The notes under the pieces are model-generated. The model saw only the letters and a list, made by a program, of their open reading frames with translations, was not told the origin of the DNA and ran no database searches. DNA of 34,758 nt from Welwitschia mirabilis (Eukaryota), in NCBI GenBank assembly GCA_051453625.1, contig JBOZIK010000001.1:5751206-5785963 (forward strand), written 5' to 3'. The translations under genes and the position numbers were made by a program. This document shows positions 8,434-34,279 of this stretch, piece by piece; the first letter of the stretch is position 1; each line of letters opens with the position of its first letter.

Positions 8434-9840
8434 TAAGGATTAATTAAATTCAAAAGAAGAGGTGAAGGGTTTTACTAAATAAAATTTTAACTAAATAATA
8501 GAATGAAAATTTATAATAGTATACCTTACCAAGATAATGTGGTTCCTTAACCTAGATACATCCACACACAGAGGATAGCTTCTACTCACACCTCTAGATA
8601 TTCTTAATCTACAAAAAAATAGTGGTTTTATGGTATACCACCAATATTACTACAAATGAGATTCTTCTCATAAGGTATCATTCTCTTCCCCTTAAGGAAA
8701 TAATGGTTTTCTAGATCATCCATAACATTTGCCACAAATAAGTACTCATAGGCATAACATCAACACACCTATACAAGGGTTGTCTTACAATGTGTTTGGT
8801 ATTCAAAAATGGACTTTATTTAACATCTAATAATAACATAGTTCATAAAGTAAAACTAAAAGTACAAAACAATAGTAAATCCAATGAGATAGCAATGATG
8901 AAGATTTGAGATCCTTAATGTTATTGTTCTTGTTATAAGTGTAAATGAAGAATATAGTAATGAAAATCTAAGAGTGAACGGTAATAGTAGTACTAGCTTC
9001 TTTGCAATGATACCTTGAATCTTTGTGAGAAGTATCTTTTACTCATCTAAGATTCTTTGAATGTTAATCATTGAGAACCAAGAAATCTTTAAATTTCTAA
9101 TTAATCAATAAAGTGCTAAAAGTTCTTCTTAGATTTGTAACATTAAGGCTTTATAGGATTGAAGAAGATCTAGTAATTTGAGCTTGAAAGATAGCCATTT
9201 AATTTTGTAACCATTGTATGATAGATATCTAACATTTGTGCTTCAAGCACATAAGTTTGATTTTAATCAATGTGAAATTTGCCCTAAAACATATTTAATT
9301 TGTAGATGTCTTCACCAAAGATGTCTTTACTTTTGTAGATTTCTTTAGTTAACTTGCCTTGATTTTGATAAATTTTACTTTGTAGTATCCTTAGACATTC
9401 ATGATCATATATCTATGATGTACAAATTCATAGCTCACCTAAAGCATTAGATATTAGTTAAAAAACAAATTGATTCTATTACTTATTTTCGCTTAATATA
9501 GATATCTTCAAGATGTAGACATCTTCGTATGTATTATATTCAACTTTCAACTTAATCATCTTAAATATGATAGTTGTCTTTTATCTTATGACTTAAATTC
9601 CATCACATTTAAGATTTCTTCAGATTTATAGACATTTTTACTTAAGATGTCTTTAATTTTTTAGATGTTTTCAAATAATTAATTTGTTGGTTTACCATCT
9701 AATCCCTTTCATGAAATGTTTCCTTTAAAGATCTATCATGATCTAGTACCTATCAAGGTCTGATGTTCCTATAATGATCTATCTATATAATGATACAAAA
9801 TATTTGATAAGTGGAATTATCAAAACTAGATTTTCCAATA
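8434..9840 (-). repeat. 3' LTR of element B
   Basis: Collinear with 14449-15824 and bounded by the PPT. Confidence 0.9.
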
Positions 9841-9853
9841 ATATTTCCTTTTT
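9841..9853 (-). promoter_or_regulatory. Polypurine tract of element B (second PPT-like copy at ~10188-10203)
   Basis: Minus-strand CATCATTAAAAAGGAAATAT-TATT resembles the SIRE-type CATCAAAAAGGGGGAGATTGTT. An upstream AAAAAGGATGGAGAA copy fits the multiple-PPT signature known for Sireviruses. Confidence 0.7.
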
Positions 9854-10604
9854 AATGATGTTCAAAACTTGGTAAATATTGTTATTATAAACTCATCTAA
9901 ACAACTAAAATCAAACATTTTATATTTTAAATAATAATACATAATAATTTTAAAATTATGTTTAAGTATCATAACATTTACCACTTGAAAATAAAATCAC
10001 ATAAATATATATTTTTAAAAAAATAGATAAGATCTATGATGAACCATTTGCATAATCAAACAAGGACATAGAGATAAGTAATAATTCATTAAGTAAAATA
10101 TATTGGAGTATGAAATATATCATGAAAATCATAGTATTAAATTATTATAGAAGTGTGCCCAACTAAAAGTGATTGGTCTGTAAAATCTTCTCCATCCTTT
10201 TTGAATAGCATAAAAAAGGAGTATAGATTCAAGAGTCTGATGGTTCCCTTGCATATGTGCCTCCTTGGAAGTCTAGTACTCACCCTAAGTATGTGTCTCT
10301 TAGAGTTAGTAATTGTTGTTCTATAAAACATTTTTTAATAATAGTATAGATAAAGACGTCCACACTTTTTAAGATGTCTTTGTCAGAGACATCTACATAT
10401 ATGAAGACATCTACAATGAAAGTTCTAGAAATTTCAAAACGGTCTATGACTACTACAATTATAATAATACCACTTCGAAAAGATAAATATCAAGCACATA
10501 ATTTTAACTTTAACTACATCAAACTATATCTAATCATAATCTCAACTCATAAGATAAATACAATGTGGAGTTGAGAAATTAAGACATATTACTTGGTTTT
10601 TTAC

Positions 10605-13560
10605 CTAATTAAGTAAGGCTCAATCCCCAATTTTTTTCATAATTTTATATATTTTTTAGTACTTAGAGGTTTTGTAAATGTGTCTACAAGTTAATTATTT
10701 TTACTAATGTATTGCATTATAGTATCTCTATTCTAAACATGTTCTCTAAGAAAGTAATATCAAATCTTAATATGCTTGGTTCTTGAGTGTCATATAGAAT
10801 TTTTGGATATATTGATGGCACTCGTATTATCACAATAAATAGGAATGTTATTAGTGAAAAGATCAAAATCTTTTAATGTTTTCTTCATCCATAGAAGTTG
10901 TACACAATAACTTCCTCTAACAATATACTCAGTCTTGGCTATAGATAAAGCATTTGAGTTCTACTTCTTACTACTTCAAAATATTAGGAATTACCTATGC
11001 AAAAAGTAAGTTCCACTTGTACTTCTTTTGTCATCTTTATATCCTGCCCAATTTGCCTTACAATACCCTACAAAATCAAGTGAGAAGTAATCAAAAATTC
11101 TATTAACAACTATAAGATGTGATTATTTAGATCACTTTGATAGTGTGTATAAATTCTTATGCTTAGCATAATATCAGGTTAGCTACTATAAGATATAATA
11201 GACTACTAATCATACCTCTGTATAGCTTTTGATCCACATTCTTATGGTTTTCATCTTTGTTCAGCTTGGTGTTTTAATTCATGGGAGTCTCCTTTTCTTT
11301 ACAATCATGTAAACCATGTTTGACTAACAAATTTTTAATATATTTAGCTTATAAATGTACCTTGCTTATTTTGCATAACTTGAAGTCTAAAGAAATTGCT
11401 CATTTCTTTCTTAACACTCATCTCAAACTCATCCTACATAATCTTAGCAAATTTATTATGCAAGGCTTTATTAGTGGCACTAAAAATAATATCATCTACA
11501 TAAATTTAAACAATAATAAAATATTTACCATCTTTTCTAATGAGTAATATCACATCTAATATACCTCTTTTGAAGTCGTTTTCAACCAAATGACTTGAGA
11601 GCTTTTCATACCAAGCTTTTAGACCTTGTTTAAGATCATAGAGAGGATTCTTTAATTTGAAAATATGATAATCTTTTTCTGAGATAATGAATCCATTTGG
11701 TTATTTAACATATACTTATTCTTGAATATTTCCATTGAAAAAAGAACTTTTAACATTCATTTGATAAAGTTTGAAATCTTTCATACAAGCAAAAAGCTAA
11801 AACCATTCTTATTAATTCCATATAAGCCATAGGAGAAAAGGTTTTTTTAAAGTTAATTCCTTTCTATTGATTGTAATCTTTTATTACTAGTCTTGCTTTA
11901 TTTCTAGTAACATTTCCATGCTCATCTATTTTATTTTTAAAAATCCACTTCATGTTAATAACTGGTCTATTAGAAGGTCTTGGAGTAAGTTCCCAAACAT
12001 TGCATCTTTCAAATTGATTAAGCTCTCTTACATAGAAACCATCTAATGTTCATCATTTTCTACTTCTTTGAAAGTTCTAGGTTCAAGTTTAGAGATATAA
12101 TTTGCATAACCACAAAATTCTTTAGTATGACTTCCAATTTGAATGCCTTCATAAGGACTTCCTATAATGTTGCCTGTTGAGTGCCTCTTTTTAAACTTAT
12201 CATGCTTGATAGATTTTTCTTTTCTAATTCTTCTTCTTTTTTCCTTTACTATTAACTTGAACTTACAATTGTCTAAAGGGTTGAATAATTTATCCAAGAG
12301 TATAACCATTTTCCACATTCATAGGATTTGATTGAATACCACCTGTTTTAACACTTATCATTTCTTCAACTACATATGTTTTGATATTGTACACCTTATA
12401 CACCAAATTTTCTTCAATTGTTTCTTTTATTTAAAATAAGTCACTTTGAACCAAATATATAAAGGTAATAAACAAAATGTTTATGCTTGATCATAACTCA
12501 TATGAAGTTTTAGAAGTAAATCTTCTTTTCAGAACTCTATTAGAAACATAAAAGGCTATATTAATTGCTTCTACCTAAAACTAATATGATACCTTTTTGG
12601 CATCCATCACTATCCTTGTCATATCATTGAGAACTCTATTCTTTCTTTTAGCTACTCTATTTTGTTGGGGAATTCTTGGAACAGAGAATTAAAATAGAAT
12701 TTTAAATTATTCAAAAAATTCTTTGAATTTTGTATATTTGAAATTGATACCATCATCACTTTTTATCATTTTCATTCTATATTCCTTTTAATTTTGCAAC
12801 TTGATGCACAACTCAGAAAAATCATTAATAGCCTTATCCTTATGTGCAAGGAAGGCTACCCATGTAAAATGAGAAAAATTATCTACAATTGTCAAATAAT
12901 ATATTTTCTTACCTAATTGTTTTATAAATGAAGGACCAACAATGTCTGAATGTAAGAGATATAATGAACATTTAGTATAGATAATACTTTTCTTACCAAA
13001 TTTTACCTTTGTCTACTTCTCTTTTTAATATGCTTTATAGATTTGCTTATTAATGTTTTCAAACTTGGGAATTACTCTTACTAATTCCTTTATAGACAAG
13101 ATTTTGAAAAGATCTTTATTCACATGACTAAGTTTTCTGTATCATAGCTCTACTATATCTATTTTACTAAGAAAACACTTGGTTCTATTATTAGATATAT
13201 CTTACAATGTAGTGATGTAAAAATTTTATTTTCTTACTTTAGCAAATAATACTTTAGTAGTATTTTATTATCTTATGACATAATCATTTTTTATAGACAT
13301 AATAGAAAAAGTTGCATCACAGAGTTAACTTATACTTAAGATATTATGTTGCAAACCTTCTATGAAAAATACATCTTTTACCTCCAATAAATTACCTCCT
13401 CCAATGGTGTCAATGCCTTTGATTGATGCTTTTGTGTTATATTTAAAAGATATAACTCCCTTATCTTATTCCACCAAGGTGTTAAAGTTGGATTTAGCTC
13501 CAGTCATGTGTCTTGATCATCTACTGTCAACATATCATACATGCTTCTTTAATGCTCTGA
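10605..13560 (-). pseudogene. pol: Copia pol relic of element B (PR-INT-RT-RNase H)
   Basis: PR *YVDSR*SRHMTG (~13500-13540). INT ~12350-13150. RT VWELTPRP...KWIFKNK...RNKARLV and an intact YVDD (11491-11502). RH DDKRSTSG...IYCDNTSAINI...RTKHIKI...DTFTKPL (~10650-11075). Confidence 0.93.
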
Positions 13561-13599
13561 GTGTTATTTGAGATATAAGTATTAGTTTTAATTTTAATA

Positions 13600-14426
13600 T
13601 CCATATTTTTCTAGTTTGTCCTTAACAAAATGTTATATCATCCTACTTAGCCTTTTGGCATTATCAGAATAATATCATATTCTAATTCTCATTGGATATC
13701 TGTAATGATAATGACCTATATTATAACAATCATAATAAATAATATTGTTTGTATGCATAAAGTGTTGATACCTCAGCTTAAAGTTCTATTTTTTAAATAA
13801 GAAGGCTAAAGTACTTGTTGTAGGTTTAATGTGTCTCAAGCCACTTTTATCATTTGATCATATACATTATAAAAGCATAACATTCAAGGTCTCTTTCCCT
13901 TCATCATTGATCTTCTTTGAATTAGATAGTTCTTATATTACAAACTTCAATTCACATATTAGTCTACTAATCTTAACTCTAAGAGCTGATTTTTCTAAAG
14001 ATAATTTATTATTGATATTCTTTTCTTGTTCATAACATTCTTTATGGGAATGAAATAATGTTTTCATTTTAATACATACTTTTCTAGTTTAATACACTCT
14101 TCAAAAATTAGTTCATACCTCTCTTTAAGATCCAAATATGTGTTTTCTTTGCTATCTGTTTCATCTTCTTCTCCTATCTCATCTTTTTCTTCTTGAGAAT
14201 GTGCAATGGCCATGAGAGTATGGTAGGTTTCTTCATTAGATAATTTTCTTTCTATTGTAATTTTTGAAATTCTTTATTCTTTATTTCTCGAACTCTAAAA
14301 CTCATATGATTGTAAGAACATCTATATCCTTAGTTTCTAATAGGCATAGTTTATCCATTTGAAGAGTGAAGGTTTAATGGATGGCATCCCTTTCATTGTT
14401 TACTCAAGGAAGTTACTTCTTTTCAT
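13600..14426 (-). pseudogene. gag: Internally deleted gag relic of element B
   Basis: KPSLFKWINYAY*KLRI*MFLQS at ~14310-14375 runs almost directly into EETYHTLMA (~14210-14235). Only the distal zinc knuckle (~13695-13745) remains. Confidence 0.75.
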
Positions 14427-14434
14427 GAGTACCC

Positions 14435-14446
14435 ACTCTAATACCA
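14435..14446 (-). promoter_or_regulatory. tRNA-iMet PBS of element B
   Basis: Minus-strand TGGTATTAGAGT, 2 nt from the LTR end. Confidence 0.85.
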
Positions 14447-14448
14447 CC

Positions 14449-15824
14449 TAAGAATAAATTAACTTAGAGAGAAGAAATGAATGAGTTCCACCAAATAAAA
14501 TCTAGATCAAATAATAAAATGAAAATGTATAATAAGATACCTTAGCAAGATAATGTGGTTTTCTAACCTAGGTATTTTCACATATAGAGGGTAGTTTCTA
14601 GTCATAACTCTAGATATTCTTAACCTATAAGAAAATTGTGGTTTCCTAATATACCATCAATCTTATAAAAAATTAGAGTTTTCTTGTAAGATAGCACTCT
14701 CTTTCCCTCAAAGAAATAATGGTTTTCTGGATCACCAATAACCTTTACCACAAACAAGTACTCATAGGAATAACCTTAAATGCACATCCATATAAGGGTT
14801 AACTTACAATGTGTTTAGTATTCAAGAATGAACTTTACCATAATATTTAACAATAAGATATTTTATAAAGTCAAATCAAAAGTGTAAAATAATAATAAGC
14901 CTATTGAGATAGCTATAATAAAGATTTTAGATTCTTAATGTTATTGTTATTGTCACAAGTACAAACGAAGAATACCAAAATGAAGATTCAAGAGCAAATA
15001 ATAATAGTAGTACTAGCTCCTTTACAATGATGCCTTGATTCTTTATGAGAAGTGTCATTAGTAATGCAAGATTCATTTTGATGTTGATCATTGAGAGCTA
15101 AGAAATCTCTATATTTCTGATTAATCAATAAAGTGCCAAAAGTTCTTCTTATATTTGTGACATTGAGGCTTTATAAGGTTAAAGAAGAACTAGAAATTTG
15201 AGCTTGAAAAATAGCCATTTGATTCTATAACTATCATATAATGGATAGCTAACATTTATGCTTTTGGGCACATAACTTTAATTTTAATCAACATAATTTT
15301 AGTACAAAATGTCTTCAATTTTTTTATATGTCTTCATATCTTGATTTTTGTAGACTTCTCTAGTCAAGTTGTCTAGATTCTAATGAATTTTACTCTATAG
15401 TATCCTTGGACCTTTATGATTATGACTCTATGATGTACAAGTTCATAGCTCATCTAAAATGTTAGATATTAGTAAAAAATAAAATTGACTTTGTCATTCA
15501 TTTTAGGTTAGTATAGACATCATCAAACATGTAGAGATCTTCAATTATGTCAAGTTCAAATTTTAATTTAGTCTTCTTAAATATGGTAGTTATCTTTTAG
15601 CCTATGACTTTAATTCTAATACATTCAAGTTGTCTTCATATTTTTAGACATTTTTACTTGAGATGTATTAAATTTTCTATATGTTTTCCTTTTTGTAAGA
15701 TGTTTCCTCTAAAGATCTATCATAATCTAGTATCTATCAAGATCTACTGTTCCTCTAATAACCTATCTACATAATGACATAAAATATTTGATAAGTGGAA
15801 TCATCAAAACTATATTTTTAAATG
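14449..15824 (-). repeat. 5' LTR of element B
   Basis: Collinear with 8434-9840. Confidence 0.9.
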
Positions 15825-16065
15825 AATGTCTTCTTTACCTTTATCTTAGTAAGATAATTATTCAAAAATTTTTAAATATCATGTAATAGTTAAAAATGGC
15901 TAAGTTTTGATCATTTAGAGATTCATTAATTTTTTGCTATAGATGTCTTTGACATAGTTAATATCTTTGTTAGTTTAATGTCTTCAACTTAAAATATGTC
16001 TTTAATCAAATTATTTAGATTTTAAAAAGAAAAAAAACTTTAACTACTATATCTCTAATCCTTAG
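15825..16065 (-). mobile_element. 5' LTR of element A, piece 2
   Basis: Contains AGATGTCT motifs. Ends ATCCTTAG, which continues at 21402 in register with the element B LTR (ATCCTTAGACATTCATGA...). Confidence 0.6.
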
Positions 16066-16241
16066 TATAATGACCCCAAAATTTCTACAGTTGAAAATCT
16101 TAAAGCTTAATGCTCTAGTACCAACTTTAACACCCCAAAAATCCTACAGTTAAAAATCTTCAACTTGAAACTCTGATATCAAAATGTAATGATCCAATTT
16201 TTGTGCTTAAAATTTTCTTCTAGATCGATACTAAAATGTAA
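16066..16241 (-). repeat. Tandem array of ~52-60 bp [LTR terminus + iMet PBS] units
   Basis: TGTAA-like starts at 16066, 16126, 16185 and 16237. rc-PBS GCTCTAGTACCA 16112-16123, ACTCTGATATCA 16170-16181 and degenerate GATACTA ~16227-16233. Confidence 0.85.
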
Positions 16242-16667
16242 TTGTAATATAGTTTTTTAATGATTAAAACTTATTTGTTGAAATATTTCTTTTATCTAAG
16301 TACTAGGGTTTATTTGAATAATGGCTTACATTTTAATATGTTTAAAACATACCCTTTTAGAATATAAGGGTTAAGAAATTCAGACTTCATTAAGGAAAAG
16401 AAGATATATCTTCAAAGTAATCATTATAATTTGTCAATGAAATCTCTTAGGTAGTTTCTACTAATTCTATGCTTAGAATAGAAATAATAGCACTACATGG
16501 AATAAAAATAATAGAATTACAATATATTCCTTTAATCAATATGAAATCAACATCTAAAAAAATTCCTTTGCAAAATAAACTATTATAACAAATTCTTAAT
16601 TTACAGATCGCCAAATGAGGTAGTGGGCTTCACAAATCACCAAATGAGGCAGTGAAGTTAAATATTA

Positions 16668-18303: not shown

Positions 18304-18637
18304 AAGTTGTATAGCAATATCTCATTAGAAAACCTTAATACGAACTCATGCTTTTCTTAAATCTATTTATCTTTAATAATTTATCCTTAAATATGGATAT
18401 GAGACCTTCCCTCCTATCCAAAGTAATTTAGACCCAAGAAAAAGAAATTATTCCTCCTCTTTAAAAGTTATTAAGGATTGAAGAATGGGCTTTAAGTAAT
18501 AAGGGGGAAGTTAGCAAAAGTTAAGGGCCTTGTGTATGTTTTTCCTCCAGTTATAATTATTATATTACCATTAGATAATAAAATTTAATGGAAGAGAGGA
18601 GTATTAGTTAACAAAAATTTATGCCATTTCATTCATA

Positions 18638-18697
18638 ATGGGGTTTGAACCCACACCCTTTCTCATCTTGTAACTTCCACTTACCACTAAGCTATTG
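18638..18697 (-). promoter_or_regulatory. tRNA-derived Pol III A/B-box motif
   Basis: Minus-strand TAGCTTAGTGG (A box, 18684-18694) and GGTTCAAACC (B box, 18642-18651) at tRNA-like spacing. No convincing cloverleaf. Confidence 0.6.
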
Positions 18698-18977
18698 ATC
18701 TATTATTAAACAAAACAACATTACCACCTCATTTGAACTTAATGTTGGAATGTTTAATGGTTAATGCAAAAAAAGAGGAATTTTTGCTAAGCATTATGAC
18801 GCTCCTGCATTAAGAAACTCCAACGCATCATTAAAAAACTCCAACTTGTTATTTCAGTTCTGGGCTGAACGTCTATAGCTTCTGATGAGCCATAGGAGAG
18901 ATGGAAGAGAGGGTAGATTGTAAAGGATGTAGGAACTATTGTATGCCATTCAAATTTGTCCTTTGATGAAATGTTTT

Positions 18978-19090
18978 GCTGAAAATGCCTCTCTAACTTT
19001 CATTTGCCAAGAAAAATGCCTAGCCACTGCAATGCCTCTCTAGATTTCAATTGCCAAGAAAACAAATGCCCAGCCCTGAAATGTCTCTAA
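18978..19090. repeat. ~48 bp tandem repeat, about 2.3 copies
   Basis: AATGCCTCTCTA..TTTCAWTTGCCAAGAAAA..AATGCCYAGCC repeated. Confidence 0.85.
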
Positions 19091-19872
19091 TCGAATCACA
19101 CCTGAATGTTCTTGTCCATAAATATGCTTGAATCATGTGTTTTTCTTCCAATGTTTCAGTTTCATTCATGTGTTATGATACATAAATCATGCCAATAGTT
19201 AAATTTTTTTTGTGTGTTTCAGCTCTGTTTTCTCAATGAACACTTTTAATTATGTTTTGTAAACACCTTCCAGCATTTAGTGAAATTGTATTAAGCTGAA
19301 TCATCTTTTTTTCTTTCCAATGCACTTCTTCCTGCAAAACACCACTCCTTCTTAAAGATCTTCTTATTGATTAAACATATTCTTTCATGCATTCAAGGTC
19401 TATGGATTTTCTCCCAGCTAAAATGTTTTAAAAACCATTCGCTATCAATAAAATGCCCAAAACTACACATAAATTCTTCCTTGTGATTCCGTTAAAGAAG
19501 GGGGCACTTATCTAATTGATTAAACACCCTAGATTAGAAACACCTTTTTTCCCCTATTTAAATTAAACCAATGCATTTCATGCTAGTGATTCATTCTTCT
19601 TTTATTTGGGCATTTCATACTTAGCCTTCCTCCATTTTTTTTTCTCATAGTGTTTGATAACGACCTCCTTACATTCTTTGTGTAGTGCTATTTTCTAATC
19701 GTAATTAATCCTTGGTTGCATTCTTGTATTCGCTTTGGACTCGCATTCATTCAAGTGCGCTATCGCCATTGAAATTCTGACACTGTTTAAGTATGAAGAA
19801 ACCCTATCTTCCTTACAGAATGTTCAACGTTCATAATAGATATTATTTTACGTTTAATTGTTTATAGCATTG

Positions 19873-19945
19873 AGCTCCATAGTGTAGTGGATAAGTCATT
19901 TAATTTCATTTGCAGAAGTCATAAGATCAATTCCCAGCGTGTGCC
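19873..19945 (+). promoter_or_regulatory. tRNA-derived Pol III A/B-box motif
   Basis: TAGTGTAGTGG (19880-19890) and degenerate B box AGATCAATTCC (19924-19934). Confidence 0.55.
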
Positions 19946-20289
19946 TTAATTAAAAATTTTGTTCTCCTCTCTTTTGAGTCACTTGTTAAATTCTAAGTTG
20001 CTTCATAACTCCTAATTAGGATTAATATAATATTTATTACACCTATAAAAATAATCTTATGGTCAAGGAATACTCTAAGTTCAATGGTCTTTTTAACCAT
20101 TCAAATTAAGCCAAATTTCAACTCATTTAAGTTAGAGGAAAAATTTTAGTTTTGCCCTCCAATTAGATTTTTTTTCTAAGTCTTAATTATAACCTTCTAT
20201 CTCTTACCCAACCTTATTTATCTATGGATCATACTTTGAGTGCTAAAAAAATTAGAGTGAAATATCAAATTTATGGCAACCATAAGATT

Positions 20290-20604
20290 GTGGGGCTTTA
20301 CATTGATATTACAGTGTTATATGGAGACATATTTAATATTAAAATTTTGGGCCTTTATATTTGATTTCATAGAATCTAGTTCTGAAGATTTTGCAACTAT
20401 GAAATTTGGGTCTTTACATTTGGTATCAGAGCGTCAGAGTGAGTTTTGAAGCTTTCAATATTAATATTTTTAAAGTGTTACATTTTGGTATCAGAGCATT
20501 GTATTATTGAAGATCTTTAACTATAAAATTTTAGGATGTTACATTTTGGTATCAGAGCATTGTATTATTGAAGATCTTTAACTATAAAATTTTAGGATGT
20601 TACA
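20290..20604 (+). repeat. Tandem array of five [LTR terminus TTACA + iMet PBS] units; last two identical (61 bp)
   Basis: Perfect TGGTATCAGAGC at 20421, 20486 and 20547. Degenerate copies at 20304 and 20362. Exact 61-bp duplication 20476-20604, ending GATGTTACA. Confidence 0.93.
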
Positions 20605-21401
20605 AAAAGCAATCATAACTAAGATATTTTATGCATAATAGAAATATTTACATGATACATGTAAAAAGATTAAGAATCAATTAGAAAATATAAGAATTAG
20701 ATGAAAGTATATAAACCATATAAGAAATTAAAGTAAGCCATAGAACCATACCTATTTTAAGAAGAAACTCAAGATCTCATGAAGATTACAAGGCTCCAAG
20801 GCTTTTCAAGCTCCAAGATTAAGGTCACAAGATTTGATTGTAAGAAATTTTTCAAGATGTCAAATATAAGAAGAGAAAATTCCTATTTATAGTGGAAAGT
20901 ATAGGATGTGAAGAGGCACTAAGTAAAAGAGTGGTGGAAGTGGTGAAAGTGGTATGATGAAAGTGGTGAAGGTGGCAAAAGGGGTGTAGTGGAAGTAATG
21001 AATTTTGTAAAGGTGGTGGTGAAGTGGTGGAGATTCTGTTACATTACCAAGCCACTGGGTAATAATAAATAATATTATGCTTGTCATAATTAAAAAATAA
21101 TAAATGAGACATTGGTAGTAATAATAAAATATTCTATAACATGATAACAATTTCTGTAACATTTAAAAATAATAATTAAGCATATTTATTAAAAATAATT
21201 CCAATTTCAAATTAATAATTCACTGGAATTTGCTAAAATGAGTAATTAAATGAATAAAGCCAAGGCACAAAATAATAATTATGGGACTATTAGTTATTAA
21301 CATAAAATATTTGCCTTATAAAAATTCATATTCTCTTTTAACTTATTTATGAAAAATATTTTGAACTTAAATTTTACTTGTTAAAAATTTGGGACATGAT
21401 A

Positions 21402-22699: not shown

Positions 22700-25600
22700 T
22701 TTCAGATCCCCATACCCTTAGAGGATTTAAGAAATTTCATTAAACATTAACTTGATTAGTGTTATTTAGAATGATTTAGAAAACACATTAGCATCATCTT
22801 AAAACTATCTAATCATTTCAAAAAAGACTTAAAATTTAAGTTTAAAGGTGATTAAAGTCTTCCTTAATGTTAAACTATTAAAAAATGTTGTAGAAGCATA
22901 AACATTAGGATCTCATTAAAAAATTAATGATAAAGTAAATTCATTCTTTTAAAATTTGACTAGAAATAATATCCTACTCAGAGTAATTTAATAGGTGAGA
23001 TTACCTTCTAAGACTATAATTTATTTTAGTATTTATTCTTTTATTAAAACCTACTTTTACCATTTTTTATTAGCTTTTCAAACTATAAGAACCTTGGAAA
23101 GCAGTACTAAAAGGGTTCATTGTGGTTTATATGAGGAAGGTTTCACTAATTTACTTATTAAAGTTTTTTCTTAAAAAATTATTTTACTAATACCTAGGGT
23201 TATCCTTTTATATTACCTTTTCAAAGTCCAAAAACTTTGGAAAGTGGTGCTAAAGAGTTATTTAGGGTTTGTAAGAACCTTTTCACTTATTAAAACTTTT
23301 TCTTAAAAGTTTTTAATTAAAACCTGAGGTTACCATTCTATATTATCTTTTCAAAGTTTAAAAACTTTGAAAAGTAGTGCTAAAATAGTTCCTTAGGATG
23401 TACGTAAGAACATTTTCACTTATTAAACCTTTATCTTAAAATTTATTTTATTAAAACTTAAATTTATCCTTTTATATAAGATTTTCAAATTTTAAGAACT
23501 TTGGAAAGTAGTGCTAAAAGAATTCCTTAGGGATTTATATAATGTGATTTAAATTAAAAACCTATTTCTTTGTAATTATAAAAGAGCATTTTCATAGCAT
23601 AAAAATAAATTTTACAAATAAATATGTAATTACTTTGGAAAAATTTTCAAAAAGGTAACTTGCATTTAACATTAAATACATCTAAATAAGAGCCTATATT
23701 ATATTAAAATTAACTATTACAAAAGAAATTATACTAGATATCTAATAATGAAAAGAGCTAAAATAAAATTAAATATACCATTTTAAAAGATAATATTTAT
23801 TATAGGGAAAAAAAGCTAATCACTAGTTGGCATATGTTGCCATTTTCAATTATTTTAAAAGCTAACTAACCTAAAAAAAGTTATTTATATCTAGACATGA
23901 TAGCATAAATAAAGAAAAGAGTAGAATAAAATGCAAAAGTCTAGTTTATACAACACATAAGCAAAGCTCTACATGTAGGGCTGAAATAAAAGAATATATA
24001 CAAACCCAAAAATCTAAGTCCAATAGGAAGGAATTTACAAGAAATGAATCCTAACTGATAATAACCTAGGAAGAAAAATTTGTAATGCATTTCTAAGAAG
24101 ATCTATTAATAGCACCATTTCTAACACTTTTTAACTCTTCTAATAGGCATTTCAAAAGCTTAGGAACTTCTAAAATTTTAGTTTAGGATATTTGCATACA
24201 ATGAAGAGGGGCTAACTCAATGTTGTACCTATAAAAACCTCAACAACATAATCTTATTCCCTTTTATCCCTTTAATATACATTTTAGAAGCTTAAGTACT
24301 TCCAAAATTATATGCAAAAGAGGTTACAAGTTAAGAAAAATGTTGCAAAAGAGGTGTAAGAGTGCTAGAAAATATGAGAGAGTAAAAGAAGTTATAAGAT
24401 AATGATTAGAAAGAGGAGAAGGATTGATTGAATTCGAGAGGGGTCGAGAAACTTAAGGTGGGAGGAGACAGGCCAAGAACATTTGTGAAGGTAAGGAGGA
24501 TGGATGGATTTGATATAGATAGACAAAGGAAGAGGATCTTCAAGAAGCTCAATAGGGGTCTTTTCTGAAGTAGGAAGTGGGATTATTGAGGTGGAGGGAC
24601 TAGGTCAAGAGGAAGGAGGAAATAAATAAAAATTCTTATGGGAAAGGAGAGAGTGAATAAAGTAGTGGGGAGAAAAGAGAGAAAGGGGATAAAGTGATTC
24701 AAGAGAAGGATCAAAAAACTCAAGAAGAAATATCAAGAACCCTTTTGAGGGGAAAGGGAGGACAAGGGAAGGGTTTGATAGATCAAGAGGGGAGGGGGCT
24801 CAAAAGCCTTGATGAAGGTTAAGTAATTAAGAAAAGAATAAAATAAAATTCAAATGATAACGACTTCTTCCAATTATTAACATCAATAAGAAAAATTTTC
24901 AAAAAAAGTAAAATACATAGATGTGAATTTCCAGTGAGGGATAAAAATACATTTTTCATTAAATTACATTATAATAGTAATACAAATGGTTCTTATTTTT
25001 ATTTTTTTTTTTGATAAAATAAGTTAGACACATATAGGACATTATAAAATTAGCATAAAGGATATTTTTTCTTTGAACTAAAAATACTACATTACACTTA
25101 CAACATTTTACATTATAGGACCTCAAAAATTAAGGGAGAAGATAACACTCTCTTATCAGATTTCCCCCACCACTACGTAATGGTTAACTTATTAAATAAT
25201 CCCTATACTTGTGATAAAATGATATAGATGAGAACTATGAAAAACCTAGTTATCAATATAACCCAAGTGAGGAGAAGAGGGTTTTAGGAAGGTCTAAAGA
25301 TACTCAAAAACAAAAGAAGAGGAAGAAAACTCAAGATTTGCAAAATGAAAAGGTAACCATTTTCTTATCTTAAATTTTATGTATAATAAAATTTATAGTT
25401 TTAACAACACAGGTATGTCCTTACCAAAAGGGATTTTATTCAAGTTTTATGCAATTTTTCCTACTCTTCCTAGTATGTTACTTCCATGGTCATGAACACC
25501 TAATAGAGGTTACCTATCTAAAGTTCACATCATCTAGTTACCCTTGCTAGATTGTTATTTTTACTATTTATAAGTAAATCACAAATCTCAACTTTACTCT

Positions 25601-26201
25601 AGGGCCCAAAAAATATTATACTAAAGTTTTAGATTTAAGTAATATAGAAATTGTTAGAATTAAAAATCAGTCAAAAGAAGGAAAGATTGAAAAAATAGGT
25701 ATAAATTTCCCAAGAACTAAATATTCCAGCATTGTAAAGTAGCTTAATCACCACTTAAGAATAAAAAGGAGCTTAAACCATACTAAATAGGTAGAAAAAG
25801 TGCAAATTCTGAAATGTAAAGCCTATCGTTTAAGTTACCAAGCTAAAAATATGAATAAATTTTGAGAAAAATTGGAAAATAGACAATACCTTCAAGTTTC
25901 CTCACATTTATAGAGAAATTTGATGAAGTATCAAGTTTTTAAGAGACTGCTTTGTTTTTTCATAAACCCCCTCCTTCACACTTGTGCTTTTAAGAAAATA
26001 ATAATAAAAGTAATTTATTTTTAAAATAAAAGCAATAAATGACTTTTAATAACCATTTAAAGCCTTACCATATTTCTAAAATAACTAATCTCACATAAAA
26101 AATAATCATCTTTCCTAATCATTAACCTTAAAACTTTCTTATCCATGAGTAACTTTCATTAAATTTAATTCTTTGTTTGCTATGAAAGTAATGACATTAA
26201 A
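22700..26201 (-). repeat. 3' LTR of Tekay-like element (~3.5 kb)
   Basis: Bounded by the PPT at 26202 and by the point of homology to the 5' LTR end at 30515. Confidence 0.7.
23030..23540. repeat. ~130-143 bp tandem repeat, 4 copies, in the LTR U5 region
   Basis: CYTTGRAAAGYRGTRCTAAA at ~23092, 23235, 23365 and 23499. Confidence 0.9.
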
Positions 26202-26215
26202 ATTATCTCCTCCTT
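26202..26215 (-). promoter_or_regulatory. Polypurine tract of Tekay-like element
   Basis: Minus-strand AAGTTTTCAAAGGAAACTTCTTAAGGAGGAGATAA resembles the Tekay-type AATTTCGAGGACGAAATT...TAAGGGGGGAGAA. Confidence 0.75.
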
Positions 26216-26239
26216 AAGAAGTTTCCTTTGAAAACTTGT

Positions 26240-29200
26240 AAAAATTTTAGCTTTCCATTGTAAAATGTCTATTTTATGTTCCCATGTTGCTTTTGCTTTA
26301 GTTTGACCTAACTTGACTATTGCACTTTGTATAGTTGAATTTTTCTTTGTCTAAGTTCAACTTTATTTTTGTCAAAAATTTTAATTGGTTAAAATTAAAA
26401 GTACAATTAGGTAAAATATTTATTTTTTACATAGGAATTATCTTTATCACATCAAACATACATATTCTTAATAAGAAGACATGAAAAATGTTATGAAGGG
26501 TTGATAATTATGGTGGTAAAGCTAGATCATAGGCCATAGGATCAACTCTTTTGTTATCTAAAATAGTTCTATAAATATTTATATTAACTTGCCCTTCTTA
26601 CTAGAATTAAATATACCTTTAAAAGGAGATATCTCAAGGAAAACATGGTCTTCTTCTTCAAATTACACATGCCTTCTCTTCATATCAGCATATTTAGATT
26701 GTCTATCTATTACTTTTAGTAGCATCTACTTAATTAAATTGATTTTTGCTTTTAATTTTTAAATAGAGGAAACTTTTAATAGCTTATTATTAGCTACATT
26801 GAATTAATATTTTAGTGTTCTACAAACTCTTCCATAAAGAGCTTCAAATGATGCATACCCAAGATCCACTAATATTCAAACTTACTAATCTTAATAAATA
26901 TTATAAAATCTAATTACTTTTTTCTGTCTATTCACCTATTTAAGGATAAAATTCTATATTTAAATTTAACTTAGTGCCAACCTCCTCATTAAATATTGTC
27001 CAAAACCTGGATGTAAACTTACTATCCCAATTTGAAATAGTTACTTTAGATATTCCATCAAGCCTTATTATGTTTCTTATGTATTCCTTTATAATTATTT
27101 CAACTAAATGTAGTTTTAATAAGATAAAAATGTGCATATTTTGTTAACAGATCCACTACCACCATTGCAGTGTTAAATCCTTCCTTTTATTTAAAGAAAT
27201 CTATAACAAAATCCACCCCACTAGTCTCTCATTTTCATTTTAGTACTTCATGAGGATATAAAGTTCTTATTTGGTTTCTATTGTCTAATTTAACTAGTTG
27301 ATAAATTATATATTTTAACAATTAGTTCACTATTTCAGATTTCATTCCTAACCATTAATAATATTACTTGATGTATTTACACATTTCATTAACCCATAGG
27401 TGAATAGAGTACTTGGTTATATGAAATTCATCAAAAATCATATTCTTAATATGCGTAAATTTAGCTACCATAACTCTACTAAAACGGTTTACTAAATCTA
27501 AATTAGATATATCAAATCCATCTATTCCTTCTATAATATTTTTTCATAAGGGATAATATCATTGAGCATTAAGTAGTATCCCATAAAAACCAGTGTTTAC
27601 CTTTAGGCTATGAATTATATACTTGTTTACATCCAAAGCATTAGCTACTACATTTTCTTTATCTGCATGGAGATTTACTGTTACATCATAATCTTATAAT
27701 AACTCTATCCATCTTTTCTACCTAAGCTTTAGATTATACTAGATATGAATATAGCTCAAATTCTTATGGTTTGTCCAAATTTATATATTCTCTCTATAAA
27801 GATAATGCCTCCAAGGTTTTAGTGCATAAATTGCTTTAGATAATTTCAAATTATGTTTCAAATTATGAACGGGATAATTCTTTATATGATATTTTAATGT
27901 CATAGAGGCATAAGTAATAACCTTACTATATTACATAAAACTACTTCTTTCATCTCCTAATGTATTAATAAAAACTATATAAGGCTTCCTTAATTTTAGC
28001 ATCTTGAAGTAAGGATTAACTTAAACATTTAAAAATCTTTTTCACATTAATTAGTCCATGTAAATTAAGTATATTTTTTAATAGAGATATTAAAGCAATA
28101 TAAATCTTAGAAACGTTTTCAATATAACTTCTATAATAACTTGCAAGACCATGAAAACTCCTTACTTCTATTACTGATTCTGATCTAGGCCAATCCACTA
28201 CTACTTAGACCTTATTGGAATCTACACTAACTTCTTCTTATGATATTAGATTACCCAAAAATTTAATTTTTGATATCCAAAACTCATATTTTTCTAGATC
28301 TATATAGATTTCATTTCATCTTAAAGTATCCAATACTAACCTTAGATACTGCTCATGAGCTTTCTTTATTAGAGAGTATACTAGTACATCATCAATAATG
28401 ACTCTAATAAATTCATTTAAGTAATATATAAACATATTATTTATCATTACCATAAATGCAACTATAATATTTATGATACCAAATGAAATAACCTTGAATA
28501 CAAAATGTTCTTACTAGGCTTTAAAGGTAGTTTTGAAAATGTTATCTTCCTTTATTCCAAGCTGGTAATATCTTGGTTTAAGATCCATTTTAAAGAAGAC
28601 TTTTGAATATTTTAATTTATCAAATAGATCTTCTATTATTAGTAAGGAATAGTTATTATTAACCATTAATTTAGCATTTTGTAATCTTTACAAAGCATTA
28701 GACCACCATCCTTCTTTTTGATAGATAAGACCCATGCACCATAAGGAGATATATTTGGTCTAACTAGGCCTTTATCTAATAAGACTATTAGCTATAATTT
28801 TAGTTTCTCTAACTCAATTAGAATTATTCTATAAGGGGCTCTAGATATGGATTTTTCATGAGGTACCAAAGATATGCCAAAATCATCTCTCCTACCAAGA
28901 GGACATCCTGGTAACTCATCTAGAAACACATCCATATACTCCTAAACTACTCTAATTTCTATAATTTTGGCTAATTTCACAAGAAGAAAATATATTTCAC
29001 TATACCAAATGTCTTCTCTTTTCTAAATTCCCTTCTTAGTTATTTAGATTTAATTAGATTTAACATAAGATAACTAAGGTTAATTGGTAGTTGGATTATT
29101 TTTTTTAAGCTCTAAAACTTTAACCTTTATAGATTAGTAGTCTATTTAAGCTTTATTCTCATGTAGCTAATTCATATCTAGAATGATATCAAAGTAATCA

Positions 29201-29420
29201 AATTCTAAAACTAGAAGCTATAGTTAAAATGTATGATCACTAATTTTCAAATTGCACATGGAAGTTTCACCAAAAGTTGTAGTTTCACTACCATCTAGAA
29301 GTTCCACTACTAATTGATTCCTATCTTAATTATGAAGAATAATCTTTGGTCTAAAAAAGGGAACTAAAGTATTCTAAAGCTTCTAGATCCAATAAAATTA
29401 TTACAAGGAGGTCTAATATG
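26240..29420 (-). pseudogene. pol: Gypsy pol relic (PR-RT-RH-INT-chromodomain)
   Basis: PR FDIILDMN*L (~29165-29200). RT KMDLKPRYYQLGI...IIDDVLVYS (28388-28399) and ORF 28016-28198 WPR...EVRSFHGLASYYR. RH ALKPWRHYLY...NVVANAL. INT ORF 26940-27137, FEALYGRVCRT, AYDLALPP, HNIFHV. Chromodomain KATWE (~26280-26293). Confidence 0.93.
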
Positions 29421-29499
29421 GTACATAAGGTTTATAGTATTATGAGAGTTTGATTATGTTTGTCAAAATTAAGGTATATATTTTCTTGGTATTATTTGA

Positions 29500-30425
29500 G
29501 GCCTCTCACCATTTCTTTCTTTGAGGGTAGTTTCTAATCATATGAGGACCTTTATAGTTATAACATCCTATTCATTTGGAGTTTTTAACTTTATTTCTTG
29601 ATGTAGACTCTAATTTTGACTAACTTAAAGATTTACCCCTTTCTTGAGGATGTTGGAACTTAATTACATTGGCCCTAACTATCTCAAATCTATTAGTATT
29701 TATTGCTTGTACTAGATGCTTAAATGATGGCCTTTTTTATGGTTATATTTTTCTACCTTGTTAAAAGTATTATTTTTCTTTCTTTAAAGTTCTTACTCCT
29801 AACCCATGATTTTTTACTAATTCAAGCTTTCTCTAGAGCTTCAATAAGAGTGCTAGGCTAAAAAATCTTATCTTGGCTTTAAATTACAGGATGCAAACAT
29901 ACAACTAATCTCCTCACTTTTATTGCTTTACTTTCAACTCTTGATGGGATAGATCTTAATAGATCCATGAATTTTCTTTCATATTAGGCCACTGTTATGA
30001 AGCCTTACTTAAGGATGTAGAAATCTTGTGCCTTTACATTCTTATAAAATTCTGATATGTACTTCACTCAAAATCTAGCCTTAAATTCTTTCGAAGATAG
30101 TTGATTTGGAAATTGAGGCCTTTCTTTGTTTTCTTTCCACTACAGAGTTATATCTTTGTTTATTTGATAAGTTAACAAGATAGCCTTCTATTCTAAAGTA
30201 AAATTAAATATCTCTAGTTCCCTTGATATAGCTATCAACTATGCTTTAGCCTCAACTACATGATCTTATCCCTTAAAGACTAAAGGGCTTATTTACTTGA
30301 ATTGCATCATCAACTTCCTAGATATCTTTGCATCATTCCTGGCATTATTTTTCTCTTGTAATTCATCTATTAAGTTGTTGACTACATTAGCTAGAGATCT
30401 AATATTAGCAAGAGGAATCATTTCT
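29500..30425 (-). pseudogene. gag: Gypsy gag relic
   Basis: Zinc knuckle CYNYKGPHMIRNYP (~29525-29568) and retrotransposon-gag-like LSSKEFKARF...FYILK*GFITVA*YEKKF. Confidence 0.8.
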
Positions 30426-30499
30426 CTTCTAGGATTCGTTAGTCAAATCCTGCAAGACCTTAAATTCTACTATTAGTAAGTAAAATTTATTAACCTAAG

Positions 30500-30511
30500 G
30501 CTCTGATATTA
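30500..30511 (-). promoter_or_regulatory. tRNA-iMet PBS of Tekay-like element
   Basis: Minus-strand TAATATCAGAGC, 3 nt from the LTR end (plus TGTCA at 30515). Confidence 0.8.
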
Positions 30512-30514
30512 AAA

Positions 30515-30805
30515 TGTCATATCCTTGTATCCTTATAGGATCTAATAAATTTTACTAGATATTGACTTAATTAAGGATTATTTGAAATGGCTTAGAAAAC
30601 ACTTAGCATCATTTTAAAACTACTTAATCATTTTAGAAAAACTTAAAGTTTAAGGATTATTAAAGTCTTCCTTAATATTAAACTTTAATAGGTGCTATAA
30701 AAATATAAACATTAAGATTTCCTTAAAGATTTAATGATGAAATAACTTATTTCTCTTAAAATTTGGCTAAGAGAATCCTACTCAGAGTAATTTAATAGGT
30801 GAGAT
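30515..30805 (-). repeat. Remnant of Tekay-like 5' LTR
   Basis: Collinear with 22700-23000. Similarity stops abruptly at ~30805. Confidence 0.85.
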
Positions 30806-31550
30806 CATGTGATTAAAGAAATAAATCTTTAGTTAGTATTGGATTCATTTCCTATTAGCAGAAATGTAATGAGATTAGTTGATTTAGGCTAATTTTATTT
30901 GAAAATGTCTTTGATTTTGAAAGACATATATAGGATGCATAAACATATTCACCTATTATATTTTTTTCCTAAGTTTAATGAGTTGATAGAAGATGTCTTT
31001 AATATATTAGACATCTATCCTAAAAGTTCTATTCTCTGTAATTAATTTTTTATTCTAAAAATAAATATTTAAAACTAAAAGATATCTATTCATTTAATCT
31101 ATAATTAATTTAATATCTATTGAGTTCTGTAAAGATGTTTTTGAGGCTAAATATTTCTATTTCATGGATCATGGACATCTATCTATTAAAAGACATCTAT
31201 CTTATAAGTCAGTTTTGAAACAAGGTTTAAAAAAATTTAAAACAAATTTTTAATGGAAAACTTAAAAGGCTAACTCATCTACTAACATGTCTAGGATAAA
31301 TAAAACAATTCAAAAGTGAATTTAAAGCTTTAAAAGCATCATTCTTTTATGATCTTTGATCACATACAAAAATCTCTTCTTTTTATTATGAAATGACATA
31401 ACAATCTCTTTAAATGATTAAATCCTTTAAGAAATCTTTAAAGATCATTAATCTTTGATTAAATTTCATAAGTATGATTTTGAATCTTTCTTATTTGATG
31501 ATATGATCTCTTATTTCATCAAAATACCCTAACCTTTAACAAATCTCAAT
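30806..31550. mobile_element. SIRE-like LTR fragment interrupting the Tekay LTR
   Basis: Cluster of AGATGTCT/AGACATCT motifs (30991, 31009, 31191 and variants), as in elements A and B. Ends and orientation uncertain. Confidence 0.45.
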
Positions 31551-32049
31551 GTATTTAGATATTAAATAAACTTCTAATTAAAGTATGAAATAAGATCGAG
31601 CTAAATTAACTTAAGCTACTAAGATATCTATTCTTGTTAAAGATTATTGAAGTAGAAATGCAATATTTATCAATATTTTAATAATTTAATGAATAATTAA
31701 TTATAAAATAAATCATAAATAAAGAACAGTAAAATGAATCTTCAATTTGATAGAATTCTATTCATCTCTTCAGGAGGAATTAATTTTTTTTAAATTTATC
31801 TCTATTTACATGTTTTATACTTGAAGTTGATGAAATACCATTCCACCTCGCTAATTTAGGATAAATTCATTTTCTTTTTATAGAAAACATAACTTCCTAA
31901 AATCTATGTTACAATAACATATAAAATAAACCTATCTAACTAATTAACACTAAGGTACACATGAAAAATAACATGTACAACATTATGCTGATTAGATCAG
32001 ACCACATAATATGAGAATCTCTTATTTGGAATTATGTTATTAGAATTTG

Positions 32050-32288
32050 CATTTTGAAATTAAATTAAGTTTACTTTGAAAAGGAATTATTCGTCTTAAT
32101 TAGAGGTAACCTCTTTGTCTTGAAATCTATCCATTATTCTTGAGCTAAGATGTATGTAAGCCTTACAACTCCTTTCTTTACTTTATCTTTGATGAAATAG
32201 TATTTGATTTCAATGTGCTTTGACTTCTTTGAAGGTTATTCTCTTAAAAAAGTAAAATGGCTGGCATGTTATCAACAAACATATCAAG
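32050..32288 (-). pseudogene. pol: Ty1/copia RNase H C-terminal fragment
   Basis: Minus-strand MFVDNMPAI...SKHIEIKYYFIKDKVKKGVVRLTYI...DFKTKRLP. Confidence 0.85.
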
Positions 32289-33184
32289 TGATATGTTATG
32301 CAAGTAAATTATATGTATTTAATAAGATATTTTAAGTAGGTTTATAAGATACTAGACAAGTTTATGCTATGTTTTAACAATAATGAAGAGCTATGGAAAA
32401 TATCATGAAAACATGCAATCTTCATTACATTTGATAGCATTTAAGGCAAATTGTAATACTTTCTATCTAAAGTAAAAATCTTGTAACCAAAGAGGCTAAT
32501 CTAACACAAGAAACATCTTTATAAAGCCCTTCGTTCACCTTATCATCTAGACGATAGAATAACTTATGCTAACTAAGATGCTTACTAGACTAATCTAGCA
32601 ACTGATATGGATCCTATATGATATTTCATCATCTCTTGTGATGTCCAAACAACTACCATGATGACATCTTAATATAACAGCTTACTAAACTTCATCAAAT
32701 TTTCACCATGTATCATATGCCTTCTTTCATAGCTGTTAGGGTTTTACTGCATTTGTTAGTATTTGCTTTTTTAGAGTCTCTATTTATGATAACTTTATCT
32801 TTTTTAGCATCAAAATTTCTCATGATAAAAGATCAAAGGGTAATCCATCCTTGTTTTTATAGAGAGATGTCTTCCTTGGTATTGGGCTATGTATCATTCA
32901 TTAAAGTGCTACTTCTTTATAAGATGAACGTTAGTTCAAATTAATTAAAAAAATATTTTTATTTTCATATCTTTTATTATGTCCATCTTCCTCATGGTTT
33001 ATATTATTCGTGATTTAGTGATAGCTTCATCTATGATATAGATCATAAGGGCAACCTTTATTAAGATTGGCATTCGTAGTTTAGATGCATTACGTTTTAT
33101 TTCCTAGATTAACTTTGCATTGTTTTATATTCTATTTGACACACCTAATAGATTAAGTTGGCCTTGGTCTAGTAATACCTTTCT
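32289..33184 (+). mobile_element. Athila-like LTR (older copy), interrupted at 33185
   Basis: Starts TGATAT exactly where RNase H similarity ends. Shares GCATTTAAGG and ATGATATAGATCATAAGGGCAACCTTTATTAAG-type blocks with the other two copies. Confidence 0.6.
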
Positions 33185-34258
33185 TGATATTGTGCTATCA
33201 ATGTACAATTATTTAATGGATTTTATGAGTTATTTTATAGGACTTTATAGAGGTTTAAGTGCAATTTTGAGGATTATGGAGATACAAGAGGAAATCTTAG
33301 AAAAATGTAGATACTATCTAAATTTAATGCATTTAAGGAACTTTCCAATGAATAGAGCTTTTCATGATGAGATGACTAAGTTTCTCCTCAAGAAAGACAT
33401 TAAAGAAGACCATTGTCTCCTCCATCGTCCACATAATAGGAAGGATGATAACTGCTTACTGGGACCACTAAGTTATTATTTTTGAGATATTTTATAATAG
33501 TATGTCTTCCTCAATGTCATCCAAATGATATCTTAGATGACACTGACATGTGACTATCACTGATAGATTTCCTTATCCATTTTCTCCATTCCTGAGCCCT
33601 TAATAAGCATGCATAACTGCACCTTCTATTTGTTAATTTCTACTATATTTTTTTATAAATAAGTCCCCCTTCAACTCTCCTAATCCATCTTCAATGAACT
33701 AGAGATTTTTGTAATAGGAGAATGAAGGGTGAGAGATTCATCTCTATGAGTTGCAAGAAGATGAATACTTAGTAGAGGGTTGAGTATCTTCTCTTGAGAT
33801 ACAGCTATTTTGTAACCCAGATGAACATTACTCTTTTAATATAAATCTTGGTTTTCTTTACATGTTTGTATGATTTGCATTGTAGGATTTCTTATAACCC
33901 TTATAGTCTTATGTTACCCAAGATCTCATGATAATTTCTTGAGTAATAGAAATTATCAAGGGCAGTCCTTGTTAGGGTTGACATGCAAGTAGGGTTACGA
34001 TTACTTTGCATTGCATGTTAGTTTAGACTGTATATTGCACTTTTCATGGTAGTTATATTTACTTGCTTTGTTATTTACTTTGATTTCTATTATTTTGTAT
34101 AAGCAACCTGAGTCTCTTTACCGATAGACTTCAATGAGATACGCCATTCGGGTCACTCCCACTATAGTAAAGTGTTGTATTATGCATAATATCTATTTTA
34201 ATTATTAATGATAAAATTTGTTTGAATGTAAAAGTATGCATAAATACACATCACAACA
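33185..34258 (+). mobile_element. Athila-like 5' LTR
   Basis: TG...CA termini (TGATAT...ACAACA), TATA TATAAATA ~33654, followed by a PBS. Homologous to 2296-3211. Confidence 0.75.
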
Positions 34259-34260
34259 AA

Positions 34261-34279
34261 TTGGCATCATTACTAGGGA
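34261..34279 (+). promoter_or_regulatory. Degenerate Athila-type PBS
   Basis: TTGGCATCATTACTAGGGA differs from the Athila-type TTGGCGCCGTTGCCGGGGA by six transitions only and lies 2 nt after the LTR CA. Confidence 0.75.

Follow-up and report, generated by a model that had tools for sequence, protein, structure and literature searches.

A tandem array of LTR-terminus/iMet-PBS units, probably a relic of a dispersed minisatellite from a gypsy-like LTR retrotransposon family

Why does a short stretch of DNA carry five tRNA-iMet primer-binding sites (PBS) in tandem, each directly behind an LTR-like end, with no gag following them? The question is raised by array 1, located in a window of 34,758 nt (the window is the whole stretch of DNA that was analysed). 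The original prediction regarded the repeats as LTR-terminus plus iMet-PBS modules. It proposed that priming from the most distal PBS had made the LTR grow unit by unit, so that the array would keep a chronological record. The window is AT-rich, with a G+C content of 27% and six N runs, and looks like plant intergenic DNA crowded with decayed retroelements. The coordinates of its features are collected in Table 1; the Pfam scans were run on stop-to-stop ORFs.

Table 1. Features of the window, raw-read depths over array 1 and its flanks, and metagenome loci with retroelement domains.
Feature	Position	Strand	Remarks
Array 1	20262..20604	+	~5.5 units of ~60 bp; unit-scan score at least 16 at scan-window starts 20260-20580
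U1 PBS-like site	20304..20315	+	8/12 match, read by eye
U2 PBS-like site	20362..20373	+	8/12 match, read by eye
U3 exact PBS TGGTATCAGAGC	20421..20432	+	spacer unlike U4/U5 spacer
U4 exact PBS	20486..20497	+	exact word search
U5 exact PBS	20547..20558	+	exact word search
Perfect 61-bp x 2.1 tandem duplication	20476..20604	+	TRF: 100% match, score 258
Array 2	16050..16270 (approx.)	-	3-4 diverged units, array 1 family, inverted orientation
Element C 3' LTR end	22702..23042	-	pairs with 30517-30850, 76% over 347 nt
Element C 5' LTR end	30517..30850	-	pairs with 22702-23042
Element C single LTR-end/PBS junction GGATATGACA-TTT-TAATATCAGAGCC	30498..30527	-	closest full-length relative of the unit within the window
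SH3_retrovirus	4501-4824	-	Ty1/copia piece, Pfam scan
Pol_BBD	5517-5768	-	Ty1/copia piece, Pfam scan
RVT_2	11506-12049	-	Ty1/copia piece, Pfam scan
rve	12788-13012	-	Ty1/copia piece, Pfam scan
Raw-read depth, both directions summed: lowest bin	19700-19753		5-8
Raw-read depth: left of U3 core	19754-20401		20-82
Raw-read depth: bin with U3 core	20402-20455		~180-200
Raw-read depth: bin with U5 LTR-end + PBS core (~20526-20558)	20510-20563		~820-860
Raw-read depth: bin with most of last spacer	20564-20617		~33-36
Raw-read depth: array 1 right flank	20618-20941		157-470
Metagenome loci with gag, protease or Pol_BBD downstream	L006, L008, L012, L022, L023, L028, L031, L037, L041, L042		

The five PBS or PBS-like sites of array 1 were found where the original prediction had placed them, at spacings of 58, 59, 65 and 61 bp, which are the lengths of the units. 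Three are exact copies of the 12-mer TGGTATCAGAGC, given as the plant iMet PBS in passages of PMC7215508, and two match it at 8 of 12 positions. The exact 12-mer occurs nowhere else in the window. With a tolerance of two mismatches the window yields 7 sites where 1.22 would be expected, a number that 100 shuffles never attained. Each unit consists of the last ~35 nt of an LTR, 1-3 T, the iMet PBS and ~10 nt of leader. The predicted TTACA/TTATA end directly before each site reads CTTTACA, CTTTATA, CTTTACA, GTTACA and GTTACA from U1 to U5, followed by 1-3 T. The three exact PBS start 2-3 nt after TTACA, within the 0-5 nt behind a CA-ending LTR that are usual for an LTR/PBS junction.

TRF detected only the youngest part of array 1, in which the heptamer TGTTACA bounds the perfect repeat as 7-bp direct repeats (20476-20482, 20537-20543 and 20598-20604). 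U4 is the same as U5 over the shared 58 nt, and the identity value of 0.95 for this pair only reflects a 3-nt length difference. U3 has a perfect PBS with another spacer, and U1 and U2 are decayed, all as originally described. In the unit scan, array 1 scored above all of the 1692 control windows (maximum 15) along its whole range of starts, so U1 and U2 are real, decayed units. The array terminates on ...GGATGTTACA, directly followed by AAAAGCAATC, with no PBS beyond and no gag domain in the ORFs tested, which agrees with the predicted closed end. The stretch 20561-20604 is, as predicted, a 44-nt TGTA...TACA sequence; its inverted ends are 4 nt long.

Like array 1, element C (22702-30850, minus strand) carries an LTR end followed by a PBS. 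It is framed by the two LTR ends listed in Table 1, is the only full-length related element within the window, and appears gypsy-like from a weak RVT_1 match at 28316-28510 (minus strand). Its junction differs from the unit GGATGTTACA-TTT-TGGTATCAGAGC by 4 mismatches in 22 nt, and it scored 16-18 in the unit scan against the control maximum of 15. This homology to a real LTR/PBS junction supports the predicted nature of the units. The PBS of element C is single, and its aligned LTR ends are free of PBS-like sites at up to 2 mismatches. Just past the aligned part of its 3' LTR, a 134-bp tandem repeat (2.9-4 copies) occupies 23032-23532.

A second array, which the original prediction had missed, lies in inverted orientation in the same window. 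The PBS-like sites of array 2 begin at 16233, 16181, 16123 and 16063 on the minus strand, and those at 16181 and 16123 have 2 mismatches each to the PBS word. The two arrays align at 74% over 121 nt (E 1.7e-14), and their local score of 47 compares with 13.0 +/- 1.8 for shuffles (z 18.5). Their flanks, taken over 370-400 nt per side, were unrelated (z 1.0 upstream and 0.1 downstream). Unit identities were 0.62-0.75 both within and between the arrays, with U4/U5 as the sole exception. Because they are alike within and between arrays, most units are about equally old and older than the split between the two copies, and only U4/U5 is recent. A BLAST alignment of 15893-16189 with 20758-20478 (63.7%) had hinted at homology downstream of both arrays. 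This was rejected: scored without the arrays, the flanks did no better than shuffles, and outside the arrays the MAFFT alignment has the appearance of AT-rich noise.

Array 2 was also considered as part of the 5' LTR of a neighbouring copia element. This element is framed by direct repeats at 8469-9839 and 14485-15823 with ~80% identity. The LTR pair stops at 15823/9839, and the 3' copy has no array beyond, so this assignment was dropped. The repeats are LTR-like and enclose rve and RVT_2, which makes 8469-15823 (minus strand) a decayed Ty1/copia element; a PBS-like TGGTATTAGAGT is present at 14435-14446. A second copia fragment holds the SH3_retrovirus and Pol_BBD pieces, and its 5387-6328 matches 13138-14083 at 70-72% identity. 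An extra 1.7 kb between the gag-like region of this fragment and the LTR-like repeat contains a 211-bp tandem duplication (6805-7230, 93% identity).

We searched the surroundings of both arrays for the element to which they might belong. No retroelement domain (Pfam) was found in 44 ORFs tested of the 52 listed around both arrays and in 31000-34758. Array 1 had neither a plus-strand partner array nor a matching second LTR in the 34.7-kb window. In these window searches, LTR body, gag, TSD and partner LTR were absent at either array. No TG start with a 5-bp TSD was found up to 2.3 kb upstream of array 1, and a solo LTR with TSD was therefore rejected at this site. A nested insertion splitting the last unit was rejected as well. 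No continuation of the 22-mer at up to 6 mismatches was present downstream of array 1 on the plus strand, and the only extra match, at 9956-9977, has 6 mismatches, which is chance level (shuffle mean 0.77). The stretch before the next repeat in array 1 is AT, or ATTGTATTAT in the other phase, and is no polypurine tract. Array 1 thus shows the TG..CA ends and PBS of a TRIM, and lacks its polypurine tract and TSD.

A tRNA gene or tRNA-derived SINE was likewise rejected as a reading of array 1 or its neighbourhood, as ARAGORN found 0 genes and Rfam gave 0 matches at the gathering threshold. At E up to 1, Rfam gave no tRNA match in 18304-20700, only a chance-level miRNA match (E 0.19). By eye, 19868-19945 and 18630-18700 (both plus strand) look tRNA-like: motifs resembling an A box (TAGTGTAGTGG) and a B box (GATCAATTCCC) are present, together with GGGGTTTGAACCCACA, and the two stretches could be the heads of SINEs; neither ARAGORN nor Rfam matched them. 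The region 19746-19977 is covered by X1 and X4 contigs at 12-15% divergence.

Contig sets X1 and X4 (two organism codes) and raw-read runs X14 and X15 were placed on 19700-21300 at a likeness of at least 85%. The whole of this region is multi-copy, and the read depths in Table 1 give no copy number, as single-copy depth is not known. Immediately ahead of 20519/20526, and again directly past 20558-20561, 130-360 reads have loose ends. Such ends on either side of the core mean that many genomic copies have only the core in common. About half of the listed reads that run past the PBS continue with a spacer-like consensus (...TTTTTAACTGTATAAATT); the others continue with TTAGGTT..., as element C does. 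X1 and X4 contigs with two cores ~59 bp apart and other spacers gave joints that go back in the array over 24-35 foreign letters. One of these runs from 20562 to 20413 with 35 letters at a depth of 47.7 in X1, several occur in X4, and there are 120 further joints beyond those listed. These joints mark PBS arrays at other loci. A 66-bp skip (20407 to 20474) drops U3 in one X4 contig and 7 X15 reads.

Metagenome contigs were scanned for two exact PBS 52-72 bp apart, which gave 46 loci with tandem exact PBS (L001-L046) and 0 loci in viral contigs. Periods at these loci are 21-72 bp, and at least three exact PBS are present in 14. A CA lies within 5 nt upstream of every exact PBS in 25 of the 46, a purely descriptive count, as random sequence would give about one third by our own estimate and duplicates are non-independent. 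The unit number varies within one family, which has 2, 3 or 5 units in different contigs (L012, L032 and L034). L030 closes on an LTR-end-like motif without PBS, like array 1. Of 55 candidate ORFs downstream of the arrays, 39 were scanned; they belong to 27 loci. An ORF with gag, protease or Pol_BBD follows on the same strand in 10 of these loci, with lengths of up to 744 aa; unrelated genes follow in three (L002, L009 and L016), and the remaining 14 had no domain. From their open gag/protease ORFs, such multi-PBS copies look functional and are apparently intact. L039 is a complete TRIM; its LTRs measure 195 nt, its 3' LTR is preceded by a G-rich tract, and its internal domain holds three PBS, of which one carries 22 nt of LTR end. 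The original prediction had named confinement to one locus as a point against it; arrays are present in the same window (array 2), in X1 and X4 contigs and in the metagenome.

The GC-rich gypsy family of L034 (2085-2400; also L012, L022, L032, L037 and L044) has a 39-nt block perfectly conserved in each PBS unit, and ~20 nt behind each PBS that vary freely. At its start this block, which lies upstream of the PBS, reads GCTCTTCACCA, almost the PBS in reverse complement, and block and PBS could pair as a hairpin. L045 and L011 contain long arrays (at least ~20 units) of a 30-bp satellite with the iMet PBS 12-mer in its monomer; this is a PBS-bearing satellite and not a leader duplication. In L002, L017 and L019 five exact 12-mers stand at a 21-bp period, and the L002 array adjoins a bacterial-type glycosyltransferase ORF. 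These are probably a bacterial repeat matching the PBS word by chance, and not a retroelement.

Taken together, arrays 1 and 2 are probably dead, non-coding copies of a dispersed minisatellite that arose from the LTR-terminus/iMet-PBS/leader junction of a gypsy-like LTR retrotransposon family, although this reading leaves considerable room for others. The composition of the unit, its homology to the junction of element C, the other arrays in this genome and in other organisms, and the lack of LTR body, gag, TSD and partner LTR at both window arrays carry this reading. The source family would be one that is abundant in this genome. The founding structure may have been a collapse of the LTR-PBS~LTR-end type, or a short tandem duplication across the LTR/PBS boundary. 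It could have arisen by illegitimate or unequal recombination at the DNA level, or by template switching during reverse transcription, and one locus cannot separate a DNA-level from an RT-level origin. Later changes in unit number would have come from slippage, or from unequal exchange, at the repeated LTR-end motifs. The most recent would be the 61-bp duplication, made in situ between TGTTACA heptamers by one of these two routes. In active relatives the module would sit in the 5' leader, and the LTR-proximal PBS would prime minus-strand synthesis. Array 1 itself most likely has no present function.

The closest parallels are CRM1TR and CRM4TR, which have monomers of hundreds of bp in pericentromeric arrays of hundreds of kb. 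Unlike these, the window monomer is ~60 bp long, with 4-6 units per array, and the arrays are dispersed at several loci. According to passages of Sharma, Wolfgruber and Presting (2013, PMC3648361), the monomers of CRM1TR and CRM4TR consist of part of the LTR plus UTR of maize centromeric retrotransposons, and an LTR-UTR~LTR intermediate followed by unequal conversion was proposed. As in the window arrays, the monomer in that account is non-coding and spans the LTR/UTR junction of one parent Ty3/gypsy element. Array 1 has the same head-to-tail arrangement of a contiguous LTR end plus leader, aligning to the element C junction at periods of 58-65 bp. A collapse of the LTR-UTR~LTR type with unequal exchange, as described in those passages, naturally closes an array on an LTR piece, as seen here. 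The PBS is part of the window monomer and is not mentioned in the CRM1TR/CRM4TR passages of PMC3648361. The best reading is that the window arrays are miniature, dispersed members of the CRM1TR/CRM4TR and tandem-TRIM kind. The arrangement is not unique to this locus.

The original proposal of LTR growth is unlikely to hold for array 1. It takes the array as the U5 end of a 3' or solo LTR, in which priming at a downstream PBS copied the upstream units into both LTRs. The logic of distal priming is sound: upstream units would enter both LTRs, and the CA-ending motif of each unit would give a usable integrase end; in this window it lacks support. In all units TTACA/TTATA stands 1-3 nt ahead of the PBS, and array 1 halts exactly on TGTTACA before unrelated DNA, an ending also expected of a 3' or solo LTR. 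The CA before the exact PBS at the 25 metagenome loci means that downstream priming could yield usable ends there. PBS integrity increases towards the closed end (8, 8, 12, 12 and 12 of 12 from U1 to U5, five units only), which LTR growth predicts and which goes against a relic. The cores of U3 to U5 are identical (20 nt in U3 and U4, bar one T indel), despite a whole-unit identity of 0.75 between U3 and U4 and spacers at ~60-65% by eye. This identity and the rising integrity keep the model of LTR growth alive. Position and age agree in PBS integrity only; the identities of whole units to U4 show no clean age gradient (U1 0.70, U2 0.70, U3 0.75; array 2 units 0.72). Arrays 1 and 2 share no upstream LTR body, and the second LTR, partner array, TSD and gag that LTR growth calls for were absent from the searched ranges given above. 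The aligned LTR ends of element C are free of PBS-like sites. The extra PBS of L039 are internal, and its 3' LTR is directly followed by a flank without PBS. By eye, the 5-unit array of L034 has no PBS-like unit upstream of its first PBS.

Identical U3/U4 cores amid diverged spacers are not what neutral decay of one dead array would predict. This pattern suggests that selection or conversion once preserved the cores in a lineage that was still active, and fits functional multi-PBS elements better than a mere relic. Along this line, tandem modules of LTR terminus and PBS could be a selected and widespread leader architecture and not debris, with array 1 as a recent fragment of such a lineage. 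Any module would be able to prime, because in each a perfect PBS has a CA terminus correctly spaced from it. We regard this as doubtful. If true, progeny LTRs would vary in length, and spare PBS copies could buffer against silencing directed at the PBS by 3'-tRFs or otherwise.

Template switching during reverse transcription is a rather improbable source of the arrays. Here, minus-strand strong-stop DNA would have landed again just past the PBS and not on the 3' R, and the concatenated R-U5-PBS units would have been integrated. In size, the unit roughly equals a short R-U5 with the PBS and ~10 nt behind it, many taxa have arrays in elements that look intact, and passages of PMC7215508, citing Sabot and Schulman 2007, give template switching as a route by which concatenated LTR elements form. 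The arrays that this route predicts inside LTRs were not seen in the LTRs examined here. The newest duplication lies in a fragment without LTR or gag and must therefore be a DNA-level event.

The perfect 61-bp duplication, which makes up the youngest unit, has a small chance of being an artefact of the assembly. The interval 20446-20615 is not spanned by any read or contig, 193-203 raw reads can be placed at two positions in the stretch, and N runs are present in the window. Against this, a 163-nt X4 contig spans 20575-20737 with 2 differences and confirms the right array/flank junction, and independent contigs that stem from other loci hold tandem units of ~59 bp. Neither array 2 nor the older units rest on the duplication. 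A tandem micro-TRIM mobilised in trans, in which a 44-nt TGTA...TACA 'LTR' would alternate with a 17-nt internal domain (TTT, PBS and AT) and close on an LTR, is very improbable: the perfect part does start and end on the same terminus, with the inverted ends noted above, and the arrays lie in unrelated flanks like independent insertions, but no polypurine tract stands between the PBS and the next 'LTR', no TSD was found, a 17-25-nt internal domain with a 36-44-nt LTR leaves no space for promoter, R region and packaging signal, and the smallest LTR element among the literature matches listed is 292 bp (PMC3281118).

Tandemly arranged TRIMs, with Cassandra, are the other close published parallel. 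Passages of PMC13570524 and PMC7215508 describe them with 3-21 LTRs, and those of PMC13570524 call them common; recombination, slippage and template switching are proposed as causes in the two papers. Like array 1, tandem TRIM and Cassandra elements in these passages run LTR-PBS-internal-LTR-PBS, with the iMet PBS TGGTATCAGAGC behind each LTR and an LTR at both array ends. Their units are complete small elements with a polypurine tract and a period of several hundred bp, and the window unit differs in both respects. The metagenome leader arrays are like array 1 in their repeated exact iMet PBS and frequent CA-ending motifs before the copies, but the open gag/protease ORF that follows in 10 of 27 loci has no counterpart at the window arrays. 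The original prediction knew of no description of this arrangement. Tandem repeats derived from LTR and UTR, and tandem TRIMs, are in print. A literature search, weak because the acronym was swamped by phosphate-buffered saline, turned up nothing on multi-PBS leaders or on LTR elements whose PBS is multiple, duplicated or in tandem, which does not prove that no such description exists.

The locus of array 1 in itself matters little, being a non-coding relic in a nest of decayed retroelements. Duplications of LTR terminus and PBS recur in many eukaryote-like contigs, with variable unit number and some of them before gag/protease ORFs that are long and open. The lead worth following is that multi-PBS leaders recur in elements that look intact. 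Such arrays would allow PBS choice during priming, and small-RNA silencing aimed at the PBS, to be tested in a natural setting. LTR-finding software usually assumes a single PBS adjoining the LTR, and multi-PBS arrays can therefore shift the predicted LTR boundaries.

The right flank of array 1 is itself a high-copy repeat. Within it, 20930-20986 (plus strand) contains 6.8 copies of the 9-bp repeat AGTGGTGAA at 65% match, and many skip joints of 70-120 bp were seen between copies of the flank repeat at 20750-21250.
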